A stretch of 64,000 nt of DNA from Candidatus Woesearchaeota archaeon (GTDB lineage Archaea; Nanobdellota; Nanobdellia; Woesearchaeales; UBA583). The notes under the pieces are model-generated. The model was not told the DNA's origin. It searched no databases and was given only the letters and a program-made list of their open reading frames with translations. The translations under genes and the position numbers were made by a program. Every line of letters starts with the position of its first letter. Position 1 is the first letter of the stretch. The stretch is from contig CP060218.1 in the NCBI GenBank assembly GCA_023898345.1, positions 767,777 to 831,776 on the forward strand, read 5' to 3'. Of this stretch, positions 4,898 through 61,307 are shown piece after piece.

Positions 4898-5809
4898 TCA
4901 ATGTCTAATCACCTCCAACACTTTTTCATATTCTTTTACTGCAATCTCTTTTTTATTTAAATAATGAGTCATCCCAACATTTTTTGAAGTTGACCTTCCA
5001 GATATGAAGTTTGCTATTTCAATTGCAACTCCTGCTTTAACCATTAAAGTAAATGAATACTTTCTTAGATACTTTAAATGAACTATTTTCTTATTATCTT
5101 GGGTATGATCTACAAATCTATTGAAGTATGTTTTATCAAATTTACCAATATGTTCTTTTAATTCATTATATAATTCTAATGTAAAGAATAGATAATAAGA
5201 TGATTTCTGACCTCTTAAATAGAAATTATTGTAAGTAACTATGCCGTTTTCATGTATTTCTATGTTCTTTTCATCAAAATTTTCAAAGAAATGTTTAACT
5301 TCTGTTGTCCTAGCTGTTGTTTCAATATAGAATCTATATAATAAATAATGTAATCTATCATATTTAGATACTTCTTTTACAGAGTTTTTAATCTCCAAAC
5401 ATGTAGGAATATAAGTATCAATATGAACTTCATTGTGAATTTTAATTCTTCTTCGGATGTTTTCAATTATATCTAAGTCTAATATATCAAACTCTTCTAA
5501 GTAATTCAGCCATACTCTAATTGCAACTCCTCCTTGTCTTTTGTTAATTTTTTCAAGAGCAATAGCATTTTTAATCTCTTCAATGGTATTAACACTAATC
5601 TCTTCAAACAATTTAGTTAGACAATTAAAAACAGATACTGCGTAAGTTCTTGTGAACTTTTTTAAAGTATATACTTTATATTCATTTTTTGTCTTAAAGT
5701 ATATACTTTTTAATTCTATAAAATTTTGATTTTTTGGCGTAAAATTTTCTAAATTTTGAGAAATTTGCTGTTGATTAGAAATTTGTGAGGAGGCGTATTT
5801 GCCCCCTAG
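4898..5809 (-). CDS. Tyrosine recombinase / integrase (N-terminus uncertain)
   Basis: C-terminal HLKYLRKYSFT...GRS...GMTHY resembles the H-x-x-R ... Y catalytic region of tyrosine recombinases; track ORF runs on to 5980 through the tRNA, which is unlikely to be coding; no in-frame ATG after the tRNA, first TTG is much further in. Confidence 0.55.
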   Translation of the reverse strand, partial: LGGKYASSQISNQQQISQNLENFTPKNQNFIELKSIYFKTKNEYKVYTLKKFTRTYAVSVFNCLTKLFEEISVNTIEEIKNAIALEKINKRQGGVAIRVWLNYLEEFDILDLDIIENIRRRIKIHNEVHIDTYIPTCLEIKNSVKEVSKYDRLHYLLYRFYIETTARTTEVKHFFENFDEKNIEIHENGIVTYNNFYLRGQKSSYYLFFTLELYNELKEHIGKFDKTYFNRFVDHTQDNKKIVHLKYLRKYSFTLMVKAGVAIEIANFISGRSTSKNVGMTHYLNKKEIAVKEYEKVLEVIRH

Positions 5810-5812
5810 AGA

Positions 5813-5894
5813 CGCCAAGACTGGGATTTGAACCCAGAATTCCGAAGGAACTACATTAGCAGTGTAGCGCAATACCGAGTTATGCGATCTTGGC
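5813..5894 (-). tRNA. tRNA-Ser (anticodon GCU)
   Basis: Manual fold of minus strand: acceptor GCCAAGA/TCTTGGC, anticodon stem CTACA/TGTAG, loop CTGCTAA, long variable arm TTCC..GGAA, T-arm CTGGG-TTCAAAT-CCCAG, discriminator G. Confidence 0.8.
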
Positions 5895-5923
5895 ATTAGG
5901 TCTCTTTTTTTAGTCGCCGCCGG

Positions 5924-5958
5924 ATTAGCAGTGCTGCGCAATACCGAGTTATGCGACC
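5924..5958 (-). repeat. Partial duplicate of tRNA-Ser 5' half (32/35 identical to 5855-5889)
   Basis: Direct repeat attagcagtg(ct/ta)gcgcaataccgagttatgcga(c/t)c about 30 bp 5' of the tRNA on the same strand. Confidence 0.6.
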
Positions 5959-6041
5959 TCAGCTCGATGAAGATAAACAAGTAAACTTGCTATCAAAAAG
6001 TGATAAGCCAAATCTCTTTTAAAAGATTTTGCTTCTTCCCT

Positions 6042-9829: not shown

Positions 9830-10726
9830 TCCCGAAAAACTCCCTTAAACAAATGTTTAAATTCAGAAGAGATAAATCTTATTTTTATGGAACATTCTGA
9901 AGCCCTAGAAATTATAGAAACTTATGATTTAACTCCTGGACAAAGAGAATTTCTTTTTGAAAGGGCTCCTTCTTATGCTGATTCTACTTCGAATTTTCCT
10001 GCTCTTTATTCGCTGATTGCAGAAGCAGTCTCTTTCTTGAAACAACCTCTCCCTGAAAAAATGGGATTAAGTTTGGAAATGCGTCTATCTCCTACGGATG
10101 AGAGAACTTTAAAAGATGTTCTTGGTTACGAAGCACCCAGAATATTTGAACATGACATTCAGTACAGAACAGAGCAAATACGTAACATTTCACGTTTTTC
10201 TTTAGAAAAAAGAATGTCTTTTGATTTGTTAGAATTTTTTACATCTCTTGTCCTTCACAGTAGCCTAGAACCTGAAGACTATCAAAGGCTCCTCGAAACT
10301 GTAAATCCTGAAAAACTCTTAGAAATTTCATCTCGTTTAAAACAGGTAAAAGAACGGATTTTTGATAAAGAAGAATACTTTCTTAACATAATAGGAATAA
10401 AATCTTTTGATCCATTACAGATAAAATTTCTAAAACAAAGAAACTATAATGGAAATCCTTTAGCTTTTTTTAGAGAATATTTTCCTCTTTATCAAGGAAT
10501 GTCTAGATCAGAATTAAAGTCTTTTGACGTTGGTCTATACCAAGCACTGCGTTTACATGGACAAATACACTTGGCCATCCCAAGGAATAAAAAGAAACCT
10601 TCAGAATCAGATATTGCGCGAATTCAACGAATTTTTGAGTCTTATAATAGAAACAAAAGAGAAACTGCCCGTTTTCTTGGTATTACTAGCCAAACAGTTG
10701 CAAAATATATTCGTCCACAAAAATAA
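9821..10726 (+). CDS. Hypothetical protein with C-terminal helix-turn-helix
   Basis: C-terminal RETARFLGITSQTVAKYI resembles a Fis-type HTH; start codon uncertain. Confidence 0.35.
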   Translation: MCQSRKTPLNKCLNSEEINLIFMEHSEALEIIETYDLTPGQREFLFERAPSYADSTSNFPALYSLIAEAVSFLKQPLPEKMGLSLEMRLSPTDERTLKDVLGYEAPRIFEHDIQYRTEQIRNISRFSLEKRMSFDLLEFFTSLVLHSSLEPEDYQRLLETVNPEKLLEISSRLKQVKERIFDKEEYFLNIIGIKSFDPLQIKFLKQRNYNGNPLAFFREYFPLYQGMSRSELKSFDVGLYQALRLHGQIHLAIPRNKKKPSESDIARIQRIFESYNRNKRETARFLGITSQTVAKYIRPQK

Positions 10727-10773
10727 CTCCTTTTTTCTCCTCTCCTTCCACTTTGTTCGTTTGCTAGATAACG

Positions 10774-10805
10774 TTCTCGAAGTTAAAAACTTCTGCGGAA
10801 TACTA
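10774..10805. repeat. Conserved imperfect-palindrome repeat, copy 1 of 4 (GTTCTCGAAGTTAAAAACTTCTG.GGAGCA)
   Basis: Near-identical cores at 10774-10805, 33735-33790 (interrupted), 40544-40576 and 57352-57384. Confidence 0.6.
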
Positions 10806-10874
10806 TATACTAAGAAAGAAGTATAACTCTTTAAAACACTTACTATCTTAAAACTTCCTTCTGAGCTATTTTTC

Positions 10875-11234
10875 TTATTTGTCCTGAAATACTCCCTTAA
10901 CTTCAAGCTGAAAACTTTCAATCTCGCCAGGAACCTTGTCTTTTAGAAAATCCAAATTCTCCAACTCAAAGTGAACGATCTTTCCCGTCTCTGTGCACTC
11001 GAAATGACAATGACTTCTTTTTGTAGAAGAATAAATAGTCTTTCCTTGACAGGTGTACGAATAAATCTGATTCCTTTCTCTCGCATCCTTGAGGAAACGA
11101 TAAATTGTTGCAATACCTATTTTTTTATCGACTTTTGCGACTTTCTCTAACAAGGCTTCAGCATTGAAAAAAGTTTTTGTCTTTCTAATCTCCTCCTCAA
11201 TAACTTCCTTTTGTCTTGTTTGTCTGCTTTTCAT
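10875..11234 (-). CDS. Fur-family metal-responsive regulator (likely Zur)
   Basis: Fur-like DNA-binding N-terminus and HCHFEC/CQGK metal sites; adjacent to zinc uptake genes; ATG at 11234 preferred over track TTG at 11255. Confidence 0.7.
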   Translation of the reverse strand: MKSRQTRQKEVIEEEIRKTKTFFNAEALLEKVAKVDKKIGIATIYRFLKDARERNQIYSYTCQGKTIYSSTKRSHCHFECTETGKIVHFELENLDFLKDKVPGEIESFQLEVKGVFQDK

Positions 11235-11235
11235 C

Positions 11236-11258
11236 TTATTGAGAATCAAAGTCAATTA
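11236..11258. promoter_or_regulatory. Candidate Zur operator TTATTGA-N9-TCAATTA between TATA-like box and regulator start
   Basis: 7-bp inverted repeat spaced by 9 bp; same motif upstream of both zinc operons. Confidence 0.45.
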
Positions 11259-11573
11259 TTTTATAAGACTTGCGAGAAACAGAAACAGAAAAAGCACAGA
11301 AAATACAAATTTTTAAATCGAGTTCCATTTTTCCCAAAAATGAAAACACATTCTGATTTTTTTCCTCAAAAACAAACGTATAGAATACTTACAAAAACCT
11401 TATCTCTTTACGAACTCTCAACCCTAAATCCAGCAAAATACAATTCTCTAACACTCAGACTTCTAGGAACACTAAACCCTGACTGGAAACAAGTTGAAAA
11501 CAAACTATTAGAAAAATTTTTAGAAAGCTATTTGGAAATTCCTGTCTCCTCATGCACAAATAAGAGAAAAAAT

Positions 11574-11714
11574 AAGTAAAGAAATCGCTAAAATATGCCT
11601 ATCCCAATCGGAGCAGAGCTCCGGGGCATTACGGCAATTTTCAAGACGCGATTTCTAACTCCCAGCTGGGTGGTCGCAGCAGAGCTGCGGGGTATAAATA
11701 CCCAGCTAAGGAAT
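11574..11714 (+). repeat. 141-bp intergenic repeat, copy 1 (about 98% identical to 31333-31472)
   Basis: Manual alignment: two substitutions and one 1-bp indel; contains palindrome CCCAGCTGGG and internal direct repeat GCAGAGCT(C/G)CGGGG. Confidence 0.7.
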
Positions 11715-11836
11715 CATTGGAACAAGAGCCCAGAGTACAGCCTTACTATCTCCTCTCCCTCAAAACAAATCCTTGAACTCTCACAAAGAAGAAGATATAG
11801 ATTTTGAAAGAATTTTTCTAATAATTGTCCTGAGAG

Positions 11837-11870
11837 TTATTGATAATAAGACTCAATAATATTTATAAAA
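11837..11870 (+). promoter_or_regulatory. Candidate Zur operator (TTATTGA-N9-TCAATAA) plus TATA box TTTATAAAA for the first CobW-type gene
   Basis: 34-bp block identical to 14208-14241; TATA about 25 bp upstream of ATG 11892, implying a leaderless transcript. Confidence 0.5.
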
Positions 11871-11891
11871 TTCCTTCAGTTGCACTTGAAC

Positions 11892-14206: not shown

Positions 14207-14240
14207 CTATTGATAATAAGACTCAATAATATTTATAAAA
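14207..14240 (+). promoter_or_regulatory. Candidate Zur operator (cTATTGA-N9-TCAATAA) plus TATA box for the znuABC operon
   Basis: Identical to the motif at 11838-11871; ATG at 14261. Confidence 0.5.
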
Positions 14241-14260
14241 TAAAATACAAATCTTAGAAT

Positions 14261-29073: not shown

Positions 29074-29889
29074 TTAGGAAAGTGGACTTTTTATTTTTTT
29101 GAGCTGTTCACTACTCACTTTTGTGTAGATTTGTGTTGTCGAAAGATCTGCATGCCCTAATAATTCTTGAATTTTACGTATATCAACTCCTGCTTCCAGA
29201 AGATGCGTTGCAAAAGAGTGTCGCAGTGTGTGAACATGAGCTTCTTTTTGTAGTCCTGCCTTTGTCTTTGCTTTTTGCATGGCGTATTGTACAGACCTTG
29301 GGGTCAGTGGTTCTCCCTTTTTGTTCGTAAATATGAAAGCTGCTGGATCTTTGCCTGCTGCACATTTACTTAAATCGTCTTTGAGAGTATCGGAAAGAAT
29401 TGTTAATCTATCTTTTCCTCCTTTTCCATTACGTACCCAAACAATACCTTCGTTTACATCAAGATCTCTTACTCGAAGATGGATGGCTTCACTGAGTCGT
29501 AACCCGGAGGAATAATAAAGTTTGAGGATGGTTCTTTGTCGAATGTTTGATATGGCTGAGAAAAGTTTGTCGAGCTCTTCTTTGTTCAGAACAACTGGAG
29601 TTGAACGCTTCACCTTGGGGGTTTTAATCTCAAAAGAATTTCCTAGCAGTTCATTATATGTAAAAAGAAGGGCTGCCTTAATCAAACCTAATGTTCGTGG
29701 CGAAAGCTGTTCTTCGGAAATTTTTTCAGCTAGAAATGCTTTGATGTCGTCTTGGGTAATCTGTTTTGGATCTTTTTGTATGAAATCTAAGAAGTGTTTA
29801 TTGTACAAAGAATACATTTTGAGTGTTTGTTTTGAAAATCCTCGGAGCTTGAGTTCCGTTTCTATTGTCTTGAGGATATTTCCTTCCAT
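29074..29889 (-). CDS. Tyrosine recombinase XerA/XerC/XerD-like
   Basis: R..HTLRHSFATHLLEAGVDIRKIQELLGHADLSTTQIYTKV catalytic region. Confidence 0.8.
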   Translation of the reverse strand: MEGNILKTIETELKLRGFSKQTLKMYSLYNKHFLDFIQKDPKQITQDDIKAFLAEKISEEQLSPRTLGLIKAALLFTYNELLGNSFEIKTPKVKRSTPVVLNKEELDKLFSAISNIRQRTILKLYYSSGLRLSEAIHLRVRDLDVNEGIVWVRNGKGGKDRLTILSDTLKDDLSKCAAGKDPAAFIFTNKKGEPLTPRSVQYAMQKAKTKAGLQKEAHVHTLRHSFATHLLEAGVDIRKIQELLGHADLSTTQIYTKVSSEQLKKIKSPLS

Positions 29890-31174: not shown

Positions 31175-31332
31175 GAAGATACATGAGAACTTTTAATATT
31201 TTTGTGCAGGAATGGTCTTAGAAAGTTATTGAGAATGGTCGAAAAACCTCAATTTTTGATTTGGTTTTTGATCTTCTCAAAAGATAAGCTCGTAAAACCT
31301 GCAAATTTGAGGACTCGTTGCTCTTGTCTCAC

Positions 31333-31472
31333 AAGTAAAGAAATCGCTAAAATATGCCTATCCCAATCGGAGCAGAGCTCCGGGGCATTACGGCAATTTT
31401 CAAGACGCGATTTCTAACTCCCAGCTGGGTAGTCGCAGCAGAGCTGCTGGGTATAATACCCAGCTAAGGAAT
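31333..31472 (+). repeat. 140-bp intergenic repeat, copy 2 (matches 11574-11714)
   Basis: See copy 1; same orientation, about 20 kb apart. Confidence 0.7.
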
Positions 31473-31497
31473 TATGTAGGTTTTTTGTAGCTCTCCA

Positions 31498-33483
31498 TCA
31501 TTCTCGGACTTGCCGAAGAACAACGACGCCGTAGGGAGCTATGCTTGAAAGTTCTACTTCTCTGTCTAAAAGCTCAAAACTTGTACTTGCGTTATTCTCA
31601 AAAACAGCAGGGTAACTTACCAATCCAAAACCCGCATAGCCAAATTCATCAGAATTAAGCACTAGTTCGTACTTATTCTTGTCTGTAAGTCCGACTTTGT
31701 AGTTGTAGTGCCGCCAGCTCGACAAATTAAGAACAATTACATACTTTGAATCATCAGAACTTCTCTCTATCACAAAAACCTTATTTTTCTCATCAACACT
31801 CAAAACCTTTCTCTTATCAACATGAAGCGGCCAAAATGCTTTGTCGTCCATTATCTCATTAACGCGCTTTTTGTACTGAAGAAGATTACGACTCGCCTCA
31901 TTGTATGTCAGATGCCAGTGTACAGAGCTGTCATGTTCAAAGGTTCCGCTTTGCATAAGAAAAGTTTGAAGAAGATCCAAAATTCTCCCTTCTTGGGTAA
32001 AAGCAATAAGCGCTTCCATGACTTTTATTTTTCCTAAAGCATGAATATGATTGTGTGGCTGTTTGCATGTCATAGCGTCATACGCATACGAACCCGTCGC
32101 TCGCATTTCCATAAGTCCGGCCGCCGCATCATGATTGTGAAAATCGCTGACTGTCGAATTAGATTGTCCCCACTCTTTTTCAGAAATAATGTCTCTAATT
32201 TTCCAAGGGCTAATTTCGTTTGCTGCCTTTGGCATGTAATCCGCATGAAAAAAGTAGGTGAGACGAGACTCATTGTATGCCGTTGCGCCCAAAGAACGAT
32301 CACTGCTCTCAAGAGGCGTCACCAAAAGTTTGGCATTGTCCTCATAAAAATAATGAGCTTCAAAATGAAGAAGTGCTGCTGGATTGTACGCATAAAGCGA
32401 CGACGTTAACTCCCGAAGAAAAACTCTCCCATTTTGCCTTTCTTCTCCCTCTCCTGTATCACCATAACGCAAAATGCCATCGACATTGTCAATACGAAAG
32501 CCGTCAATTCTGTACTGCTTGAGAAAATGCAGACAACTGGAAATAAAAAACTCGCGCACAAAGGTATTGTCAAAATCAAGTCGTTTCGTTCCCCAAGAAG
32601 TCTCATCTTTTAGATAAAGATCTGTCCCGTTATCCTTCTTCCAAACTTGAAGGCCATTCTCTTTGCAATCTTGTCCAAAAATAGAATAATCTTTGAAGGG
32701 CAAATGTCCGAGCACAAAGTCCCCAATAACAGCAATTCCTCTTTCATGAAATGCATCTACCATGCGAGCGAACTCGTCTGGCGTTCCCCAATTCTTCTGA
32801 ATGGCAAATTGAAAGGGAACAAGATAACGGAATTTCCAATTTTCCCCATCGATACTTTGAGCAAAAGGAAGAAATTGAACTGTGTTAAAACCAAGCTCTT
32901 TTATACTATCAATAACGCCGGACTCACTAATAAATTTATAATAATTTTTTGGATGAACATCCTTGCCGCAACGACTTTGTTTGTCGCTGTAATGGGTAAT
33001 TAGTCCGGGAAGGTCTGTTTGGAGAATTTTTGTCGAGCGAGTAAAGGTGTTGATTGTGTTTTGCTGCTGCCTGTACGAGGAAGGATCTTGAAAATCCCAG
33101 AAGACACTGTTGCCCATGTCGTCAAAATATGACGCTGCCGGATCTTGAAGAATGCGTTTTCCTTCTAAATCGACAACAAGAAGTTTGTACGCCGCCTTGT
33201 GTTTGACGATGTTTGTCAAAGTAAGAGTTGCAAAAATGTTATGTTCGTCGGAGCTGAATTTGTACTCTCCTAGTTTGTTCAAATCCTGTTCCCAATTGTT
33301 AAAATCCCCGATAAGATAAACATAAGCTTTACTATCTTTCAAAAGAGAGAACTGGACACTCTTTGCACTCCCATCTTCATTTCTTTCAAGCACTTGTGGT
33401 CCAAAACGACTTTTCCAGCTCCCCATGTCCTTTGTCGGCGTCTGCTCATGATAGCATTTCTCCCACTGGTACTTTTCGTCCAT
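31498..33483 (-). CDS. Alpha-amylase family glycoside hydrolase (GH13-like)
   Basis: DGFRIDNVDG and VIGDFVLGH motifs resembling GH13 catalytic regions. Confidence 0.5.
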   Translation of the reverse strand: MDEKYQWEKCYHEQTPTKDMGSWKSRFGPQVLERNEDGSAKSVQFSLLKDSKAYVYLIGDFNNWEQDLNKLGEYKFSSDEHNIFATLTLTNIVKHKAAYKLLVVDLEGKRILQDPAASYFDDMGNSVFWDFQDPSSYRQQQNTINTFTRSTKILQTDLPGLITHYSDKQSRCGKDVHPKNYYKFISESGVIDSIKELGFNTVQFLPFAQSIDGENWKFRYLVPFQFAIQKNWGTPDEFARMVDAFHERGIAVIGDFVLGHLPFKDYSIFGQDCKENGLQVWKKDNGTDLYLKDETSWGTKRLDFDNTFVREFFISSCLHFLKQYRIDGFRIDNVDGILRYGDTGEGEERQNGRVFLRELTSSLYAYNPAALLHFEAHYFYEDNAKLLVTPLESSDRSLGATAYNESRLTYFFHADYMPKAANEISPWKIRDIISEKEWGQSNSTVSDFHNHDAAAGLMEMRATGSYAYDAMTCKQPHNHIHALGKIKVMEALIAFTQEGRILDLLQTFLMQSGTFEHDSSVHWHLTYNEASRNLLQYKKRVNEIMDDKAFWPLHVDKRKVLSVDEKNKVFVIERSSDDSKYVIVLNLSSWRHYNYKVGLTDKNKYELVLNSDEFGYAGFGLVSYPAVFENNASTSFELLDREVELSSIAPYGVVVLRQVRE

Positions 33484-33691
33484 TACTTCTTGTAAGAGTT
33501 TCGCTTTATAGTTTTTATTTTTTCGACACAGTGAAAAAATTCTGTTTTGAGGTTGAAGGAAAATTTTGTTCGGCGCCGCTTTCAGTGATAGAAGACTTCA
33601 AAAAAAACAGATACTTGCCCTAAACATTTTTTAGCTCCTCTTTTGAAAAAGTAAAAGATACTAGAATGAATATAGTTTTCCACAAAAATAA

Positions 33692-34912
33692 TTATTTTTG
33701 TCTCTCTTCCAGTTTCTTTGTTCGTTTGCTATAGGGTGTTCTCGGAGTATAATACCCAGCTAAGGAATTAAAAACTTCTGCGGAGCACCATAGAATAAAA
33801 AACAAAACCCCTCCCATGATATAAAACCCGAGTTTGTATGAAGTGTTCATAAAAAAACCGATACTAAAAACAAGAGAAAAATTAAATACCATCGAAATTT
33901 GTCCTTTAATAGAAAGAATAGTCGCTTTGTACCTCTTATCAGCAATATAATGCTTTAGTAAATATCCATCGACAAATGTTCTTCTTCCCATTTCATATGC
34001 TCCAACAAGAATAAGAACAAAAGCTACTACATAAAAGGAATTTGAAAAAGCAATAATAAAAAATGATAACGGAAAAAAAACTGTGTCGAAAAGAAGAATT
34101 TTTTTGATAGGTAAACTTTTTTCAAATCTTCCCAGATTTTTCCCCATAAAAAACTGAAGAAAAGCGGACAAACCCAAAACCACACCAAGTGCTACAATTG
34201 GAAAGCCAAGTGTTTCTAAATATGGAAATATAAAATTTGTTTTTGCAATAGAAAAACCTGTAATTGCTCCTGTAAACGTTGCTAAAGGCAAAAATAACGT
34301 TCCTTTAACTTCCTTGAATACTTGTAACAAAGAGATATGCTTTACTGATTTTTCAGGAAGTGTTGGATTCACAAGAGACAAAGCAAAAAGAAAACCAATA
34401 CTATCAAAACCTAACCCAATTAGGAGGGGAGTTTCTAAGCTAAGCTTTGTCGTATACGGAATAAGAGTAATAAGAACTGCACTAACAAGTGAAGCATAAG
34501 CAGTTATTTTGGTACTGATACTCATAAACTCATCTTCTTTTTTCAAACTTACAAGTGTTTCATGAAGAAATGCAGCTCTTGTGCCAGACTGGGCGGCAAA
34601 GGATAAGGAGGTAAAAATTGCTCCTAAAACAAAAAAAAGTAAAGAAGCACCATAGAGAAAACTCACTACTGCTAAAATCATAAATAGTTTAGCTAAAACT
34701 AGCATTTTTTTATGTCCAATTTTATCTGAGATGTATCCACTTGGAATTTCAAAAAGAAACTCTGCCAAATATCCCATTCCAGACCAAAAGCCGATTTGAA
34801 CAGCATTTGCGTTTGGTAAAGTTAAAAAATATAGAGAAAGAATTGGAAGATAATACCTTCTCTGTGTAAGCTGAAGAATAAATAATTTCCAGATATTATG
34901 CTGTAATTCCAT
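33692..34912 (-). CDS. MFS-type transporter (C-terminal about 30 aa likely read-through of an intergenic repeat)
   Basis: About 12 TM helices; 3' end overlaps the repeat block at 33735-33790. Confidence 0.6.
   Translation of the reverse strand: MELQHNIWKLFILQLTQRRYYLPILSLYFLTLPNANAVQIGFWSGMGYLAEFLFEIPSGYISDKIGHKKMLVLAKLFMILAVVSFLYGASLLFFVLGAIFTSLSFAAQSGTRAAFLHETLVSLKKEDEFMSISTKITAYASLVSAVLITLIPYTTKLSLETPLLIGLGFDSIGFLFALSLVNPTLPEKSVKHISLLQVFKEVKGTLFLPLATFTGAITGFSIAKTNFIFPYLETLGFPIVALGVVLGLSAFLQFFMGKNLGRFEKSLPIKKILLFDTVFFPLSFFIIAFSNSFYVVAFVLILVGAYEMGRRTFVDGYLLKHYIADKRYKATILSIKGQISMVFNFSLVFSIGFFMNTSYKLGFYIMGGVLFFILWCSAEVFNSLAGYYTPRTPYSKRTKKLEERQK
33735..33790. repeat. Composite repeat: hairpin-family element interrupted by a 22-bp fragment (33747-33768) of the 140-bp repeat
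   Basis: gttctcggag + gtataatacccagctaaggaat + taaaaacttctgcggagcac. Confidence 0.55.
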
Positions 34913-40509: not shown

Positions 40510-40543
40510 GACTCATTCTTTTTGTCTCTTCCCTCTCACTATA

Positions 40544-40576
40544 GTGTTCTCGAAGTTAAAAACTTCTGAGGAGCAT
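40544..40576. repeat. Hairpin-family repeat, copy 3
   Basis: gtgttctcgaagttaaaaacttctgaggagcat in the divergent intergenic region. Confidence 0.6.
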
Positions 40577-57343: not shown

Positions 57344-57351
57344 GAAAACAA

Positions 57352-57384
57352 GTGTTCTCGAAGTTGAAAACTTCTGCTGAGCAC
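57352..57384. repeat. Hairpin-family repeat, copy 4
   Basis: gtgttctcgaagttgaaaacttctgctgagcac between convergent genes. Confidence 0.6.
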
Positions 57385-58401: not shown

Positions 58402-58942
58402 TTTTTATTTTAACTTCATCCTTTCGGACAAACAATAAGAAGTACAAGATCTAAACTCGCATCAACACGGGTATCATCGCCAGTTTTGAATTGTATTCTT
58501 TGGAAAAGAAACAAATGGAAGTTTATAAATTTCACGCCTTACGACCAAAACAAAGCCCAGAAGAAAAAACTACAAAAATAGGGCACCTAGGTCTCTTTCA
58601 GAAATTTCGGCACTTTGACATGTCATTATTAAAATGTTTAAAGTATCGTTCGAAAGAAATCCGTGCTGTCTTTAGGCTGAGGATGAATTGAATGATAATT
58701 TGTACAACAATCTTGGTATACTCATTTGAAACTCCGTAGAATCCCCTTCTTTTAAGCTGAGAAGTTTGAAGTTTTCTAGCACTTCAATCAATTTTAAAAG
58801 TACAGAGGATTTACAAAAGACTTATCCTTCATAAATATTTTCTAGATTAACCCTGAGACTTGCCAAGGTAAGACCAAAACTGTAACTTTTGAAACTCTTA
58901 GGCAGTCCGTGGACATACCACAATCGAGCAATGTAACTGTTA

Positions 58943-59065
58943 CTTACGAGCAGCGAAAGCCATTGTTCGTGTTCGAGTTAGAAGGACCATTGTTCAAGTT
59001 CAGAGCAAAGGCACCCGCGTTTGCACCATTGTTCCAATTGCCCCCGGACAGGAAAACACCCTTTG
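58943..59065 (-). repeat. DGR template repeat (TR)
   Basis: 123-bp match to 59971-60093; 17 of 19 differences are at TR adenines on the minus strand; TR reads KGVFLSGGNWNNGANAGAFALNLNNGPSNSNTNNGFRCS-stop. Confidence 0.8.
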
Positions 59066-59903: not shown

Positions 59904-59962
59904 GCCAGAACTCCAGAGTACTAGAGTGCCTGAACTCTAAGTTACCATCATTCGTACAATGC

Positions 59963-61303
59963 TCATCGTGCAAAGGAGCAGCGAAAGCCATAGTCCGTGC
60001 TCGAGTGAGAAGGACCATTGTCCAAGCGCAGAGCAAAGGCCCCCGCGCGCGCACCAGAGTCCCAAGCGCCCCCGGACAGGAAAACACCCTTTGACGCACA
60101 ATATCCAGTACAAAAATCGGGATACTCATTCACATTATTATACGCACCCAAAATGTCGTAACCATCGTAATATCTCCCCATTCCTTGATTCGCATTCCAT
60201 CCATTTGAAGGAAGCTTCAAAGTGGGAACAAGACTTGCAACCTTGCCTGTGCCGTCATTGCTATGGTAACTCATCCATTGCTGGTCTCCTCCATGATATC
60301 TGTATGGTGAACCAAGACTCTCATTTGCATAGACCCAAGCGTCAACCCATTCCCAGACATTGCCTGCAAAGTCCCAGAGTACTTCTCCGTTTGACAAGTT
60401 CAAAGTTCTTCTTTGTCCTGCACATGCCCTTCCACTTGTTGTGTCATCACCAGCTACAAAGTTGTTATACGAACCATCACAAGAACTCAGACTATCTCCT
60501 GTCCCAGAGTAGCCATTTCCGTCGTCAGTGTCAGCAGCAAGTCTGCTTGAGGGACTGTTGTCGTTGTGCCCAGAGTACAAGAAACCAGTGCCAACGACAG
60601 AGGAGTTCCAGTTGCTTGCGACAAACTCAACATTGTGTGCAATCGTCAGCCTCTCTTCTTCCGTCATCAAATGAAAGCCAGAACCCAAACTCTCACACTC
60701 TACCTTTGCTGCGTTCCACGTAATCGAAGCCCAAGGTAAACTAGCAGCTTGCGATGTCGCAACACCCCCAACATTCTTTGCTTCGTACTTCATCACACAA
60801 AAATTGTGTGTGCCGAGTTCAGCATTTCCGGGAACGACAACATAGCCGTCCGGACATGGGTTCTCGTACACGTAAGAATTCACATACTCCGTCTTTGAAT
60901 AAATCCTGCCATCCGTCACAACGACAATCTCATTCTTCCCTTCGTTGGCGCAGTCACTCATAGGCAAGACATTCAAAGAATTGTTTGTCAAACCAGAAAC
61001 AAAGCAATCATTTCCGTTAATAGAAACGCTTTGGATTTTAGCATTTCCCTTCACAAAAAGAGTTCCGCCAGACAGACCTTCAACAGAGAAAGAGCCAGAA
61101 GAACTTTGTGTGTCGACATGTGAAAGTGTAGAACTAGAAAAAGATTGGTACCAGGTTTGAAATCCGAGTGCCGCCAGAATAGCAACGACAATCAGCAAGA
61201 CACTAGCGACAACAGGAGAAATAGCTTTTTTCGAAGAGAGACACGAAGAAGACATCCTAAAATTAGACGAGACAAGTTTTGGGGAAAGCTTAGTTCTGTT
61301 CAT
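59963..61303 (-). CDS. DGR target protein: N-terminal TM anchor, C-terminal C-type-lectin/FGE-like variable domain
   Basis: ATG at 61303; TM segment VVASVLLIVVAILAALG; C-terminus ...NVWEWVDAW...GGAWDSGARAGAFALRLDNGPSHSSTDYGFRCSFAR; VR is the last 41 codons. Confidence 0.8.
   Translation of the reverse strand: MNRTKLSPKLVSSNFRMSSSCLSSKKAISPVVASVLLIVVAILAALGFQTWYQSFSSSTLSHVDTQSSSGSFSVEGLSGGTLFVKGNAKIQSVSINGNDCFVSGLTNNSLNVLPMSDCANEGKNEIVVVTDGRIYSKTEYVNSYVYENPCPDGYVVVPGNAELGTHNFCVMKYEAKNVGGVATSQAASLPWASITWNAAKVECESLGSGFHLMTEEERLTIAHNVEFVASNWNSSVVGTGFLYSGHNDNSPSSRLAADTDDGNGYSGTGDSLSSCDGSYNNFVAGDDTTSGRACAGQRRTLNLSNGEVLWDFAGNVWEWVDAWVYANESLGSPYRYHGGDQQWMSYHSNDGTGKVASLVPTLKLPSNGWNANQGMGRYYDGYDILGAYNNVNEYPDFCTGYCASKGVFLSGGAWDSGARAGAFALRLDNGPSHSSTDYGFRCSFAR
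59971..60093 (-). repeat. DGR variable repeat (VR) at the 3' end of the target gene
   Basis: Aligned to TR by hand; all 11 AAY codons of TR are substituted in VR. Confidence 0.8.
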
Positions 61304-61307
61304 TTTT

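Follow-up and report, generated by a model that had tools for sequence, protein, structure and literature searches.

The transposases of the IS200/IS605 family act on folded single strands, and classical MITEs are characterised by terminal inverted repeats and by target-site duplications made by DDE transposases. PATEs (palindrome-associated transposable elements) are known from Haloquadratum walsbyi and other haloarchaea (Dyall-Smith et al. 2011, PMC3119063), and their definition includes core deletions that run from hairpin to hairpin, as well as 'terminal-only' versions that result from deletion between the palindromes (PMC3119063). In IS608 of Helicobacter pylori, an AAAG guide recognises TTAC (PMC5027513).

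Two near-identical repeats, A and B, occur in the 64-kb stretch of DNA that was analysed (the window), and they are very probably non-autonomous PATEs of the IS200/IS605 family in minus-strand orientation, each copy consisting of a left-end (LE) hairpin domain fused to a right-end (RE) domain, with loss of the transposase gene. At 137 and 136 nt the copies are too short for a transposase, and apart from the split host ORF described below they gave no Pfam, protein-database or tblastn matches. All structural features by which PATEs were defined (PMC3119063) and that can be tested in the window were found in these copies. As in PATEs, their length leaves no room for a transposase, terminal inverted repeats and target duplications are absent, and similar palindromes, related to those of IS605-type transposons, lie close to both termini; an apparent origin by core deletion, 'terminal-only' forms (here the decayed copy C and a related locus, L043) and strain-specific insertions complete the likeness. 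The window copies differ from described PATEs in their sequence family, in their host, which is a small-genome archaeon from engineered or groundwater-type metagenomes and not a haloarchaeon, in their derivation from a tnpA-only (IS200-type) element and not from IS1341/tnpB types, and in two extra covarying stems around the core hairpin of the RE. The kind of element is already known; what is worth keeping is a clean empty site, a covarying three-stem RE, and a core hairpin that is common to tnpA-only and tnpB-only elements.

The original prediction had listed a MITE-like element among its options. This stands in so far as the copies appear to be short, non-autonomous transposable elements, which like classical MITEs are multi-copy and would be mobilised in trans; the classical MITE itself was rejected, as the window copies show neither inverted repeats nor target duplication.

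Pairwise alignment of 11474-11814 with 31233-31572 confirmed the reported near-identity of 11574-11714 and 31333-31472, which differ only by two substitutions (G/A and G/T) and by an indel of a single nucleotide within TATA(A)ATACCC. Identity starts at AAGTAAAG (11574/31333) and runs to AAGGAAT (11714/31472), the flanks show no relatedness outside the shared segment, and a repeat search of the window returned the pair as family D3. The element limits given in Table 1 are those favoured by the empty site, with an ambiguity of 1-2 nt, and on the favoured reading of these alignments the outermost bases of the shared segment would represent target and flank rather than element. The ends, TCCTTAGCTGGG... 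and ...GCGATTTCTTTAC, form no terminal inverted repeat, since the 3' end, when reverse-complemented (GTAAAGAAATCGC), bears no relation to the 5' end. Similar subterminal imperfect palindromes are nevertheless present at both ends on one strand: each copy has two directly repeated instances of the hairpin pattern CCCCG[C/G]AGCTCTGCT[G/C]CG, the RE hairpin having a 3-nt ATT bulge. The internal direct repeat noticed earlier corresponds to a 17-mer, GCAGAGCT[C/G]C[G/T]GGG[C/T]AT, which is also present twice per copy (five matches, reached in 0 of 100 shuffles), and the perfect palindrome CCCAGCTGGG was found at 11661-11670, where it is created by the stem that encloses the LE hairpin. Both strands of the element fold into two hairpin domains, with z values of -4.4 and -6.2 relative to shuffled sequence. 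Besides A and B, the two copies noticed at first, the window contains a decayed copy (C) and a 20-nt remnant (D), so that it holds four traces of the element.

Table 1. Positions and sequence features of the putative PATE copies and of their immediate setting in the window.
Feature	Position	Strand	Sequence or remarks
Copy A, complete 137-nt putative PATE	11576..11712	-	Reads TCCTTAGC...CTTTAC; limits +/-1-2 nt; based on alignment with B and on the empty site
RE domain of A, ~83 nt	11576..11658	-	Covariance model R1: 88.6 bits, E 2.9e-25; DNA fold z -5.4
RE of A, outer stem P1			AGAAATCGC/GCGATTTCT; based on pair counts
RE of A, stem P2			AAAATTGCC/GGCA(T)ATTTT; based on pair counts
RE of A, core imperfect hairpin	11603-11625	plus strand shown	CCC-CGGAGC-TCT-GCTCCG-ATT-GGG
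RE of A, terminal bases			TTAC
LE domain of A	11659..11712	-	Homologue of the LE that precedes tnpA in relatives; folds
LE hairpin of A	11675-11689	plus strand shown	CGCAGC-TCT-GCTGCG; enclosed by stem AGCTGGGT/ACCCAGCT
Target tetranucleotide of A	11713..11716	-	TGAT; 5' of LE; kept in the empty site
Copy B, complete 136-nt putative PATE	31335..31470	-	R1: 88.6 bits; preceded by TAAT at 31471-31474
Setting of copy B			Flanked by the stop of glgB and by the start of the gene for the Obg-like GTPase
Copy C, decayed 74-nt derivative	62597..62670	+	R1: 26.4 bits, E 2e-5; preceded by TAAT
Fragment D, 20-nt LE remnant	33747..33766	-	20/20 exact, 0 expected by chance; preceded by TAAT
Hypothetical 114-aa ORF split by A, 5' part	11340..11579	+	3' remnant 11715-11807; intact in L059

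The limits of copy A could be examined in contigs that encode an identical fur-family protein, including GCA_002505525.1 (L059) and an ENA contig (L064). In both of these site A is empty, reading CCAATGAT/TTGTTTT, as compared to CCAATGAT, the element (TCCTTAGC...CTTTAC) and TTATTTT in the filled site; in longer context, the empty ...CTTGTTCCAATGAT/TTGTTTTTTC... corresponds to the filled ...CTTGTTCCAATGAT(TCCTTAGCTGGG...GCGATTTCTTTAC)TTATTTTTTC.... There is no target duplication, just 137 nt are missing from the empty site, and in the strain that lacks A the flanking genes are found in the same order. Comparison of the translations revealed that a hypothetical 114-aa ORF, an orphan with one member in the protein database, is intact in L059 and split by copy A. 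Therefore, the intergenic location claimed for the repeats does not strictly apply to copy A, and the 70-aa ORF that runs through A is a chimera of element and host-ORF tail because the insertion split the 114-aa frame. Copy B is present in all strains examined. Since GCA_002505525.1 has copy B (its contig ends inside the LE of B) as well as fragment D, and lacks A, copy A is a strain-specific and comparatively recent insertion.

Strain comparison also bears on the behaviour of the repeats in assemblies. In GCA_020430405.1 (L002), the sequence beyond the right end of A differs, with the change beginning exactly at the element boundary, and the flank found there is not present in the window; judged from the sequences, this switch points to recombination that would have involved at least one further copy. 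At 4160-4180 of L002, a second CTTTACTT follows the right end (...CTTTACTT/CTTTACTTATCC), which may represent either a preferred target or what is left of the end of another copy. Numerous short-read contigs end within the element, as is expected of a repeat, several of them within copy B, and at least eight independent short-read assemblies of the organism break at these points because the repeat is present there. For the host the copies are selfish DNA, which has split a small ORF, provides substrates for rearrangement and breaks short-read assemblies; for annotation, the element explains these breaks and marks strain-level variation through copy A.

The original halves of the repeat could be assigned through relatives that carry transposase genes. 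These were collected by a one-genome-per-species scan with a 20-mer of the first hairpin and by a scan of JGI metagenomes with a 27-mer, and these core-hairpin scans yielded 42 loci. In 15 of them tblastn placed the RE domain directly 3' of tnpA, and the same ends surround a Y1 tnpA (Pfam Y1_Tnp) in relatives from Thermoplasmatota, Cloacimonadota and metagenomes, for example at 748-1233 of L014 (E 2.5e-30 to Y1_Tnp). On the minus strand, the first half of the window repeat is the sequence that comes right after the tnpA stop codon in many relatives, and the second hairpin found upstream of tnpA in relatives, GGGTTTAATACCCCGGAGCTCTGCTCCGG, is homologous to the second half in the window, GGGTATTTATACCCCGCAGCTCTGCTGCG. 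Because both halves match the ends that flank tnpA in relatives, the window copies are read as LE plus RE without the gene. Homologues on plasmids carry the annotation 'IS200/IS605 family transposase', and short forms that consist of LE and RE only were also encountered elsewhere (L022, L023, L028, L029, L034, and L047). At 3180-3300 of L029, a short LE-RE element is followed head to tail by a full-length tnpA copy (junction GTTTAC/TTCTACATGGG), an arrangement that represents either insertion beside a resident right end or a tandem dimer. L043 shows a single, fused hairpin in place of separate LE and RE hairpins.

The core hairpin ATGCCCCGGAGCTCTGCTCCGAWTGGGAG also closes tnpB-carrying elements in metagenome-assembled genomes (MAGs) of Woesearchaeota and Nanoarchaeota, such as L017, which matches OrfB_IS605 and Cas12f1-like_TNB. 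These tnpB-linked loci match model positions 30-59 only, so that they have the ~30-nt terminal hairpin in common with the window element and lack P1 and P2. Across archaeal and bacterial phyla, a core of 27-33 nt is almost invariant, in part owing to its role as search key, and it is common to tnpA-only and tnpB-only elements; its occurrence in both types of element in two domains of life therefore indicates horizontal spread.

Some searches delimit the present distribution of the element. By tblastn, neither tnpA nor tnpB was detected in the window or in the fetched contigs of the organism, so the window copies may be immobile at present. A 24-mer specific for the RE of the window subfamily had no matches in the metagenome collection, an autonomous element with the subfamily's own P1 and P2 was not found in the genome and metagenome scans, the core 27-mer had no matches in viral contigs, and the whole element had no blastn match among plasmids. 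Three spirochaete matches (L012, L013, and L026) were rejected: they are perfect CCCCGGAGC...GCTCCGGGG hairpins without the rest of the domain, followed by a T-run in L012, and are likely chance matches or terminators. A contig of 701 nt that bears the label Bdellovibrionales bacterium HKST-UBA10 (L020, JAGRAE010000291.1) contains the element with the region upstream of cobW and hardly differs from the archaeal L002 locus; its place in a bacterial MAG is probably due to mis-binning.

The RE folds as three stacked stems, i.e., P1, P2, and the core hairpin. A covariance model (R1) was built from the right ends of relatives and window, and is dominated by tnpA-linked right ends. Pairs were counted in an alignment of 22 distinct right ends, in which 99.5% of the cells are paired and compensatory changes on both sides occur in 11 of the 18 pairs of P1 and P2; this alignment is model-fitted, and the changes derive from about four subfamilies and thus from few independent events. 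Slid alignments were paired for 29-43%, and none of 500 shuffles attained the score; folding of the top strand as DNA gave a z of -5.4. The covarying stems include GAATCGCC/GGCGATTC and GAATCACC/GGTGATTC next to the AGAAATCGC/GCGATTTCT of the window, and a short form of the RE has the single stem GCATCGCC/GGCGATGC. The LE hairpins display compensatory variants as well (GGAGC/GCTCC, GCAGC/GCTGC, GGAGT/ACTCC, and GAAGT/ACTTC). The RE of this family is a clear case of a transposon end in which a single-strand fold is kept through compensatory changes.

With IS608 and ISDra2, the mechanistic models of the family (PMC5027513), the window copies share subterminal imperfect hairpins on one strand, insertion 3' of a specific tetranucleotide, and a precise empty site without duplication. 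The window copies differ from these elements in the absence of tnpA and tnpB and in a T-N-A-T target instead of TTAC or TTGAT. In the window, the tetranucleotide before the LE is TGAT for A and TAAT for B, C, and D, with a register of +/-1-2 nt. In relatives, TTAT precedes the LE in 20 out of 20 left ends, within TTTATT[C/T], with nothing in common among them farther upstream. TTTAC is the terminus of all right ends, and TT comes next in 30 of 32 relatives; this near-invariant T or TT after the cut, which sets the family apart from IS608 and ISDra2, has to be an additional preference of target or enzyme. The cleavage positions derive from a single empty site, where an alternative shifted by two bases, with an element that ends in TTTACTT and ATGATTC as target, is disfavoured by only one mismatch; boundaries shifted by 1 nt are equally compatible.

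Putative guide sequences lie next to the hairpins. The four nucleotides 5' of the RE hairpin foot, AATG, are complementary to TTAC position by position (4/4), just as the AAAG of IS608 lies 5' of its hairpin foot and complements its cleavage site, and at the homologous LE position relatives have AATA, complementary to TTAT (4/4). The G versus A difference between the putative RE and LE guides is mirrored by the C versus T difference between the cleavage sites. For the putative left guide of the window subfamily, TATA, just two of the four positions fit TGAT or TAAT. By the rule known from IS608, AATG and AATA would recognise TTAC and TTAT, respectively. The hairpin and the right cleavage site are ~30 nt apart, as compared to ~10 nt in IS608, and this gap would be bridged by P1 and P2, which in the simplest reading hold the distant TTAC beside the hairpin foot on the top strand.

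By analogy to IS608 and ISDra2, transposition of the window copies would require a Y1 (HuH) TnpA supplied in trans, which would bind both hairpins on the single-stranded top strand, cleave on the left just behind the target tetranucleotide and on the right just behind TTAC, and release a single-stranded circle that would be pasted 3' of a new T-N-A-T, preferentially in the lagging-strand template. GC skew is negative across the window, and the top strands of A, B, and D lie on the G-rich strand. With the G-rich strand as lagging-strand template, this is the orientation that IS200/IS605 elements favour, a weak consistency given the few copies and the archaeal host. The small-genome archaeon has evidently met IS200-type transposition, and the boundary rule (TNAT/...TTAC/, slashes marking the cuts) combined with the covariance model can be used for annotating the element family elsewhere.

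Several other explanations were weighed against this assignment as PATEs. The strong folds on either strand (z -4.4 and -6.2), the covariation of P1 and P2 and a TATA-like TATTTATA in the LE loop would also suit a family of small structured RNA genes, as originally suggested, in which the element or its RE is transcribed into a regulatory or guide RNA, be it a domesticated end or an omega-RNA-like partner for a TnpB encoded elsewhere; the core hairpin is indeed the last one before the right boundary of tnpB elements, where omega RNAs end. Such a family is improbable, however, as insertion sequences with a transposase gene elsewhere terminate at their 3' side in the same sequence: in 15 loci the domain flanks tnpA on the 3' side, and elements with tnpA only have no need of a guide RNA. 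Structure and covariance-model searches, which the original prediction had proposed as a check, revealed no Rfam family, yet strong folds and covarying right-end stems, and the recognition of single-stranded DNA already accounts for the conserved structure. With Rfam 15, three tRNAs only were found in the window at gathering scores, and around copy A the search up to E 10 gave a sole chance match to snoR110 (H/ACA-like), at 21 bits versus a cut-off of 44 and outside the core. H/ACA, C/D, and 5S RNA, considered in view of the archaeal host, were rejected, since no placement of ANA or K-turn motifs fits and Rfam gives no support. Copy C is, moreover, in decay, and the absence of A from a sister strain is ill-fitting for an essential RNA gene. 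As to the omega RNA of TnpB and the right-end RNAs of IS605- and IS1341-type elements, the likeness consists of the terminal hairpin ATGCCCCGGAGCTCTGCTCCGAWTGGGAG at the very end of tnpB elements. The window copies have no tnpB and no upstream scaffold inside a tnpB 3' coding region, and their closest relatives are tnpA-only elements; omega RNA was rejected because the window lacks tnpB and the ~30-nt terminal hairpin, without P1 and P2, is all that is common to the tnpB-linked loci. It likewise has little probability that the RE is transcribed in addition to its role as a transposon end, which would make the PATE copies stand-alone sources of structured RNA (perhaps a regulator antisense to tnpA, or a guide of the omega type that reads into the flank); if true, A and B would act in trans in transposon maintenance or host gene control.

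The location of A between a fur-family repressor gene and the cobW/znuABC cluster, and of B at 167 nt upstream of the GTPase gene, might be taken to indicate a cis-regulatory module, i.e., a leader or operator common to two operons. A regulatory module had been among the options of the original prediction and found no support: the neighbouring genes of A and B are functionally unrelated, a sister strain keeps the same operon without the element, a separate repeated box with promoter serves cobW at 11838-11871 (and recurs at 14208), and relatives occur in unrelated contexts in several phyla, all of which renders this reading highly improbable. Even less credence can be given to A and B as the attL and attR repeats of a 20-kb island made by the tyrosine recombinase that is encoded at 29074-29889. 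A and B are direct repeats at 19.8 kb from each other with this integrase-family gene between them, but the interval encodes housekeeping functions (two cobW genes, znuABC, malic enzyme, a Na/H exchanger, uvrB, tRNA-Lys, and sua5) and has an even GC content, and therefore the copies are not island ends; besides, the empty site loses 137 nt only, and the same sequence is found at unrelated loci and elsewhere beside tnpA. A small protein gene is just as hard to credit, although an ATG-initiated frame with an internal GAELRGI repeat runs through both copies (from 11595 and 31354) and of the two substitutions one is silent at the protein level. Contrary to what had been stated, this sole ORF is not broken by the indel, which changes its tail: the frame has 38 aa in B, and in A it reaches 70 aa with a tail that is a leftover of the split host ORF. 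The conclusion that the repeats are probably non-coding was borne out all the same, because the ATG is replaced by GTG in L002 and absent (ATCTGC) in other subfamilies, and among 5.8 billion proteins the translated element had no homologue except the split-host-ORF remnant, nor any Pfam match. A conserved coding frame, which would have spoken against a non-coding element, was not seen, since 1-nt indels between subfamilies shift the frame and keep the base pairing.

Copy C (R1 match at 62591-62671, plus strand) consists of LE and RE hairpins that are fused through deletion of the core, an architecture it shares with L043, and it has acquired several substitutions, including a change of the terminal TTAC to TTCC. 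Its end patterns have three mismatches in the LE and two in the RE, and it no longer folds (z +0.5). Fragment D is identical to the opening 20 nt of copy B's LE and is present in all strains examined. It may be what remains of a formerly complete copy: loss of the segment that separates the TAC in ...TATTATAC from the terminal ...TTTAC would leave precisely this sequence. The fragment interrupts one copy of another repeated module, of which uninterrupted paralogues are located at 10770, 40543, and 57351. This second repeat family, with members of up to ~100 nt at 10704-10820, 33669-33805, 40543-40575, and 57351-57383, contains CAGAAGTTTTTAACTTCGAGAACAC on the minus strand, a partly palindromic sequence similar to a BRE/TATA promoter; a member other than the interrupted one directly precedes the gene for a Hef-associated nuclease.

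The gene content of the window looks archaeal, and includes an Obg-like GTPase of the YGR210 type, the Hef-associated nuclease, an archaeal-type integrase, and a TreT-like enzyme. An exact 34-nt repeat, TATTGATAATAAGACTCAATAATATTTATAAAAT, is found at 11838-11871 and 14208-14241, upstream of cobW and of znuA, respectively. The fur-family repressor gene (10875-11255, minus strand) adjoins this repeat, which probably represents a Zur/Fur-type operator with the promoter of a zinc regulon, and one Logan contig both starts and ends in it. Part of tRNA-Ser (5811-5895) is repeated over 36 nt at 5924-5959, at 69 nt from the gene and adjoining the archaeal-type integrase gene (4898-5980, minus strand), a pattern that is typical of the attachment site of an integrated element. 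Finally, two 145-nt repeats (58921-59065 and 59949-60093) are 80% identical, and on the plus strand nearly all their mismatches are a T in the first versus any base in the second, and are thus adenine-specific on the minus strand. The adjoining ORF (59963-62533, minus strand) has an N-terminal reverse-transcriptase domain that matches group II intron, retron, and Drt models, and together these features look like a diversity-generating retroelement with a template and variable repeat pattern. Within this ORF, a 13-nt unit, TCTGAACCCTGTC, is repeated perfectly in tandem ~15 times (61307-61496), and the ORF may therefore be two genes or partly spurious.
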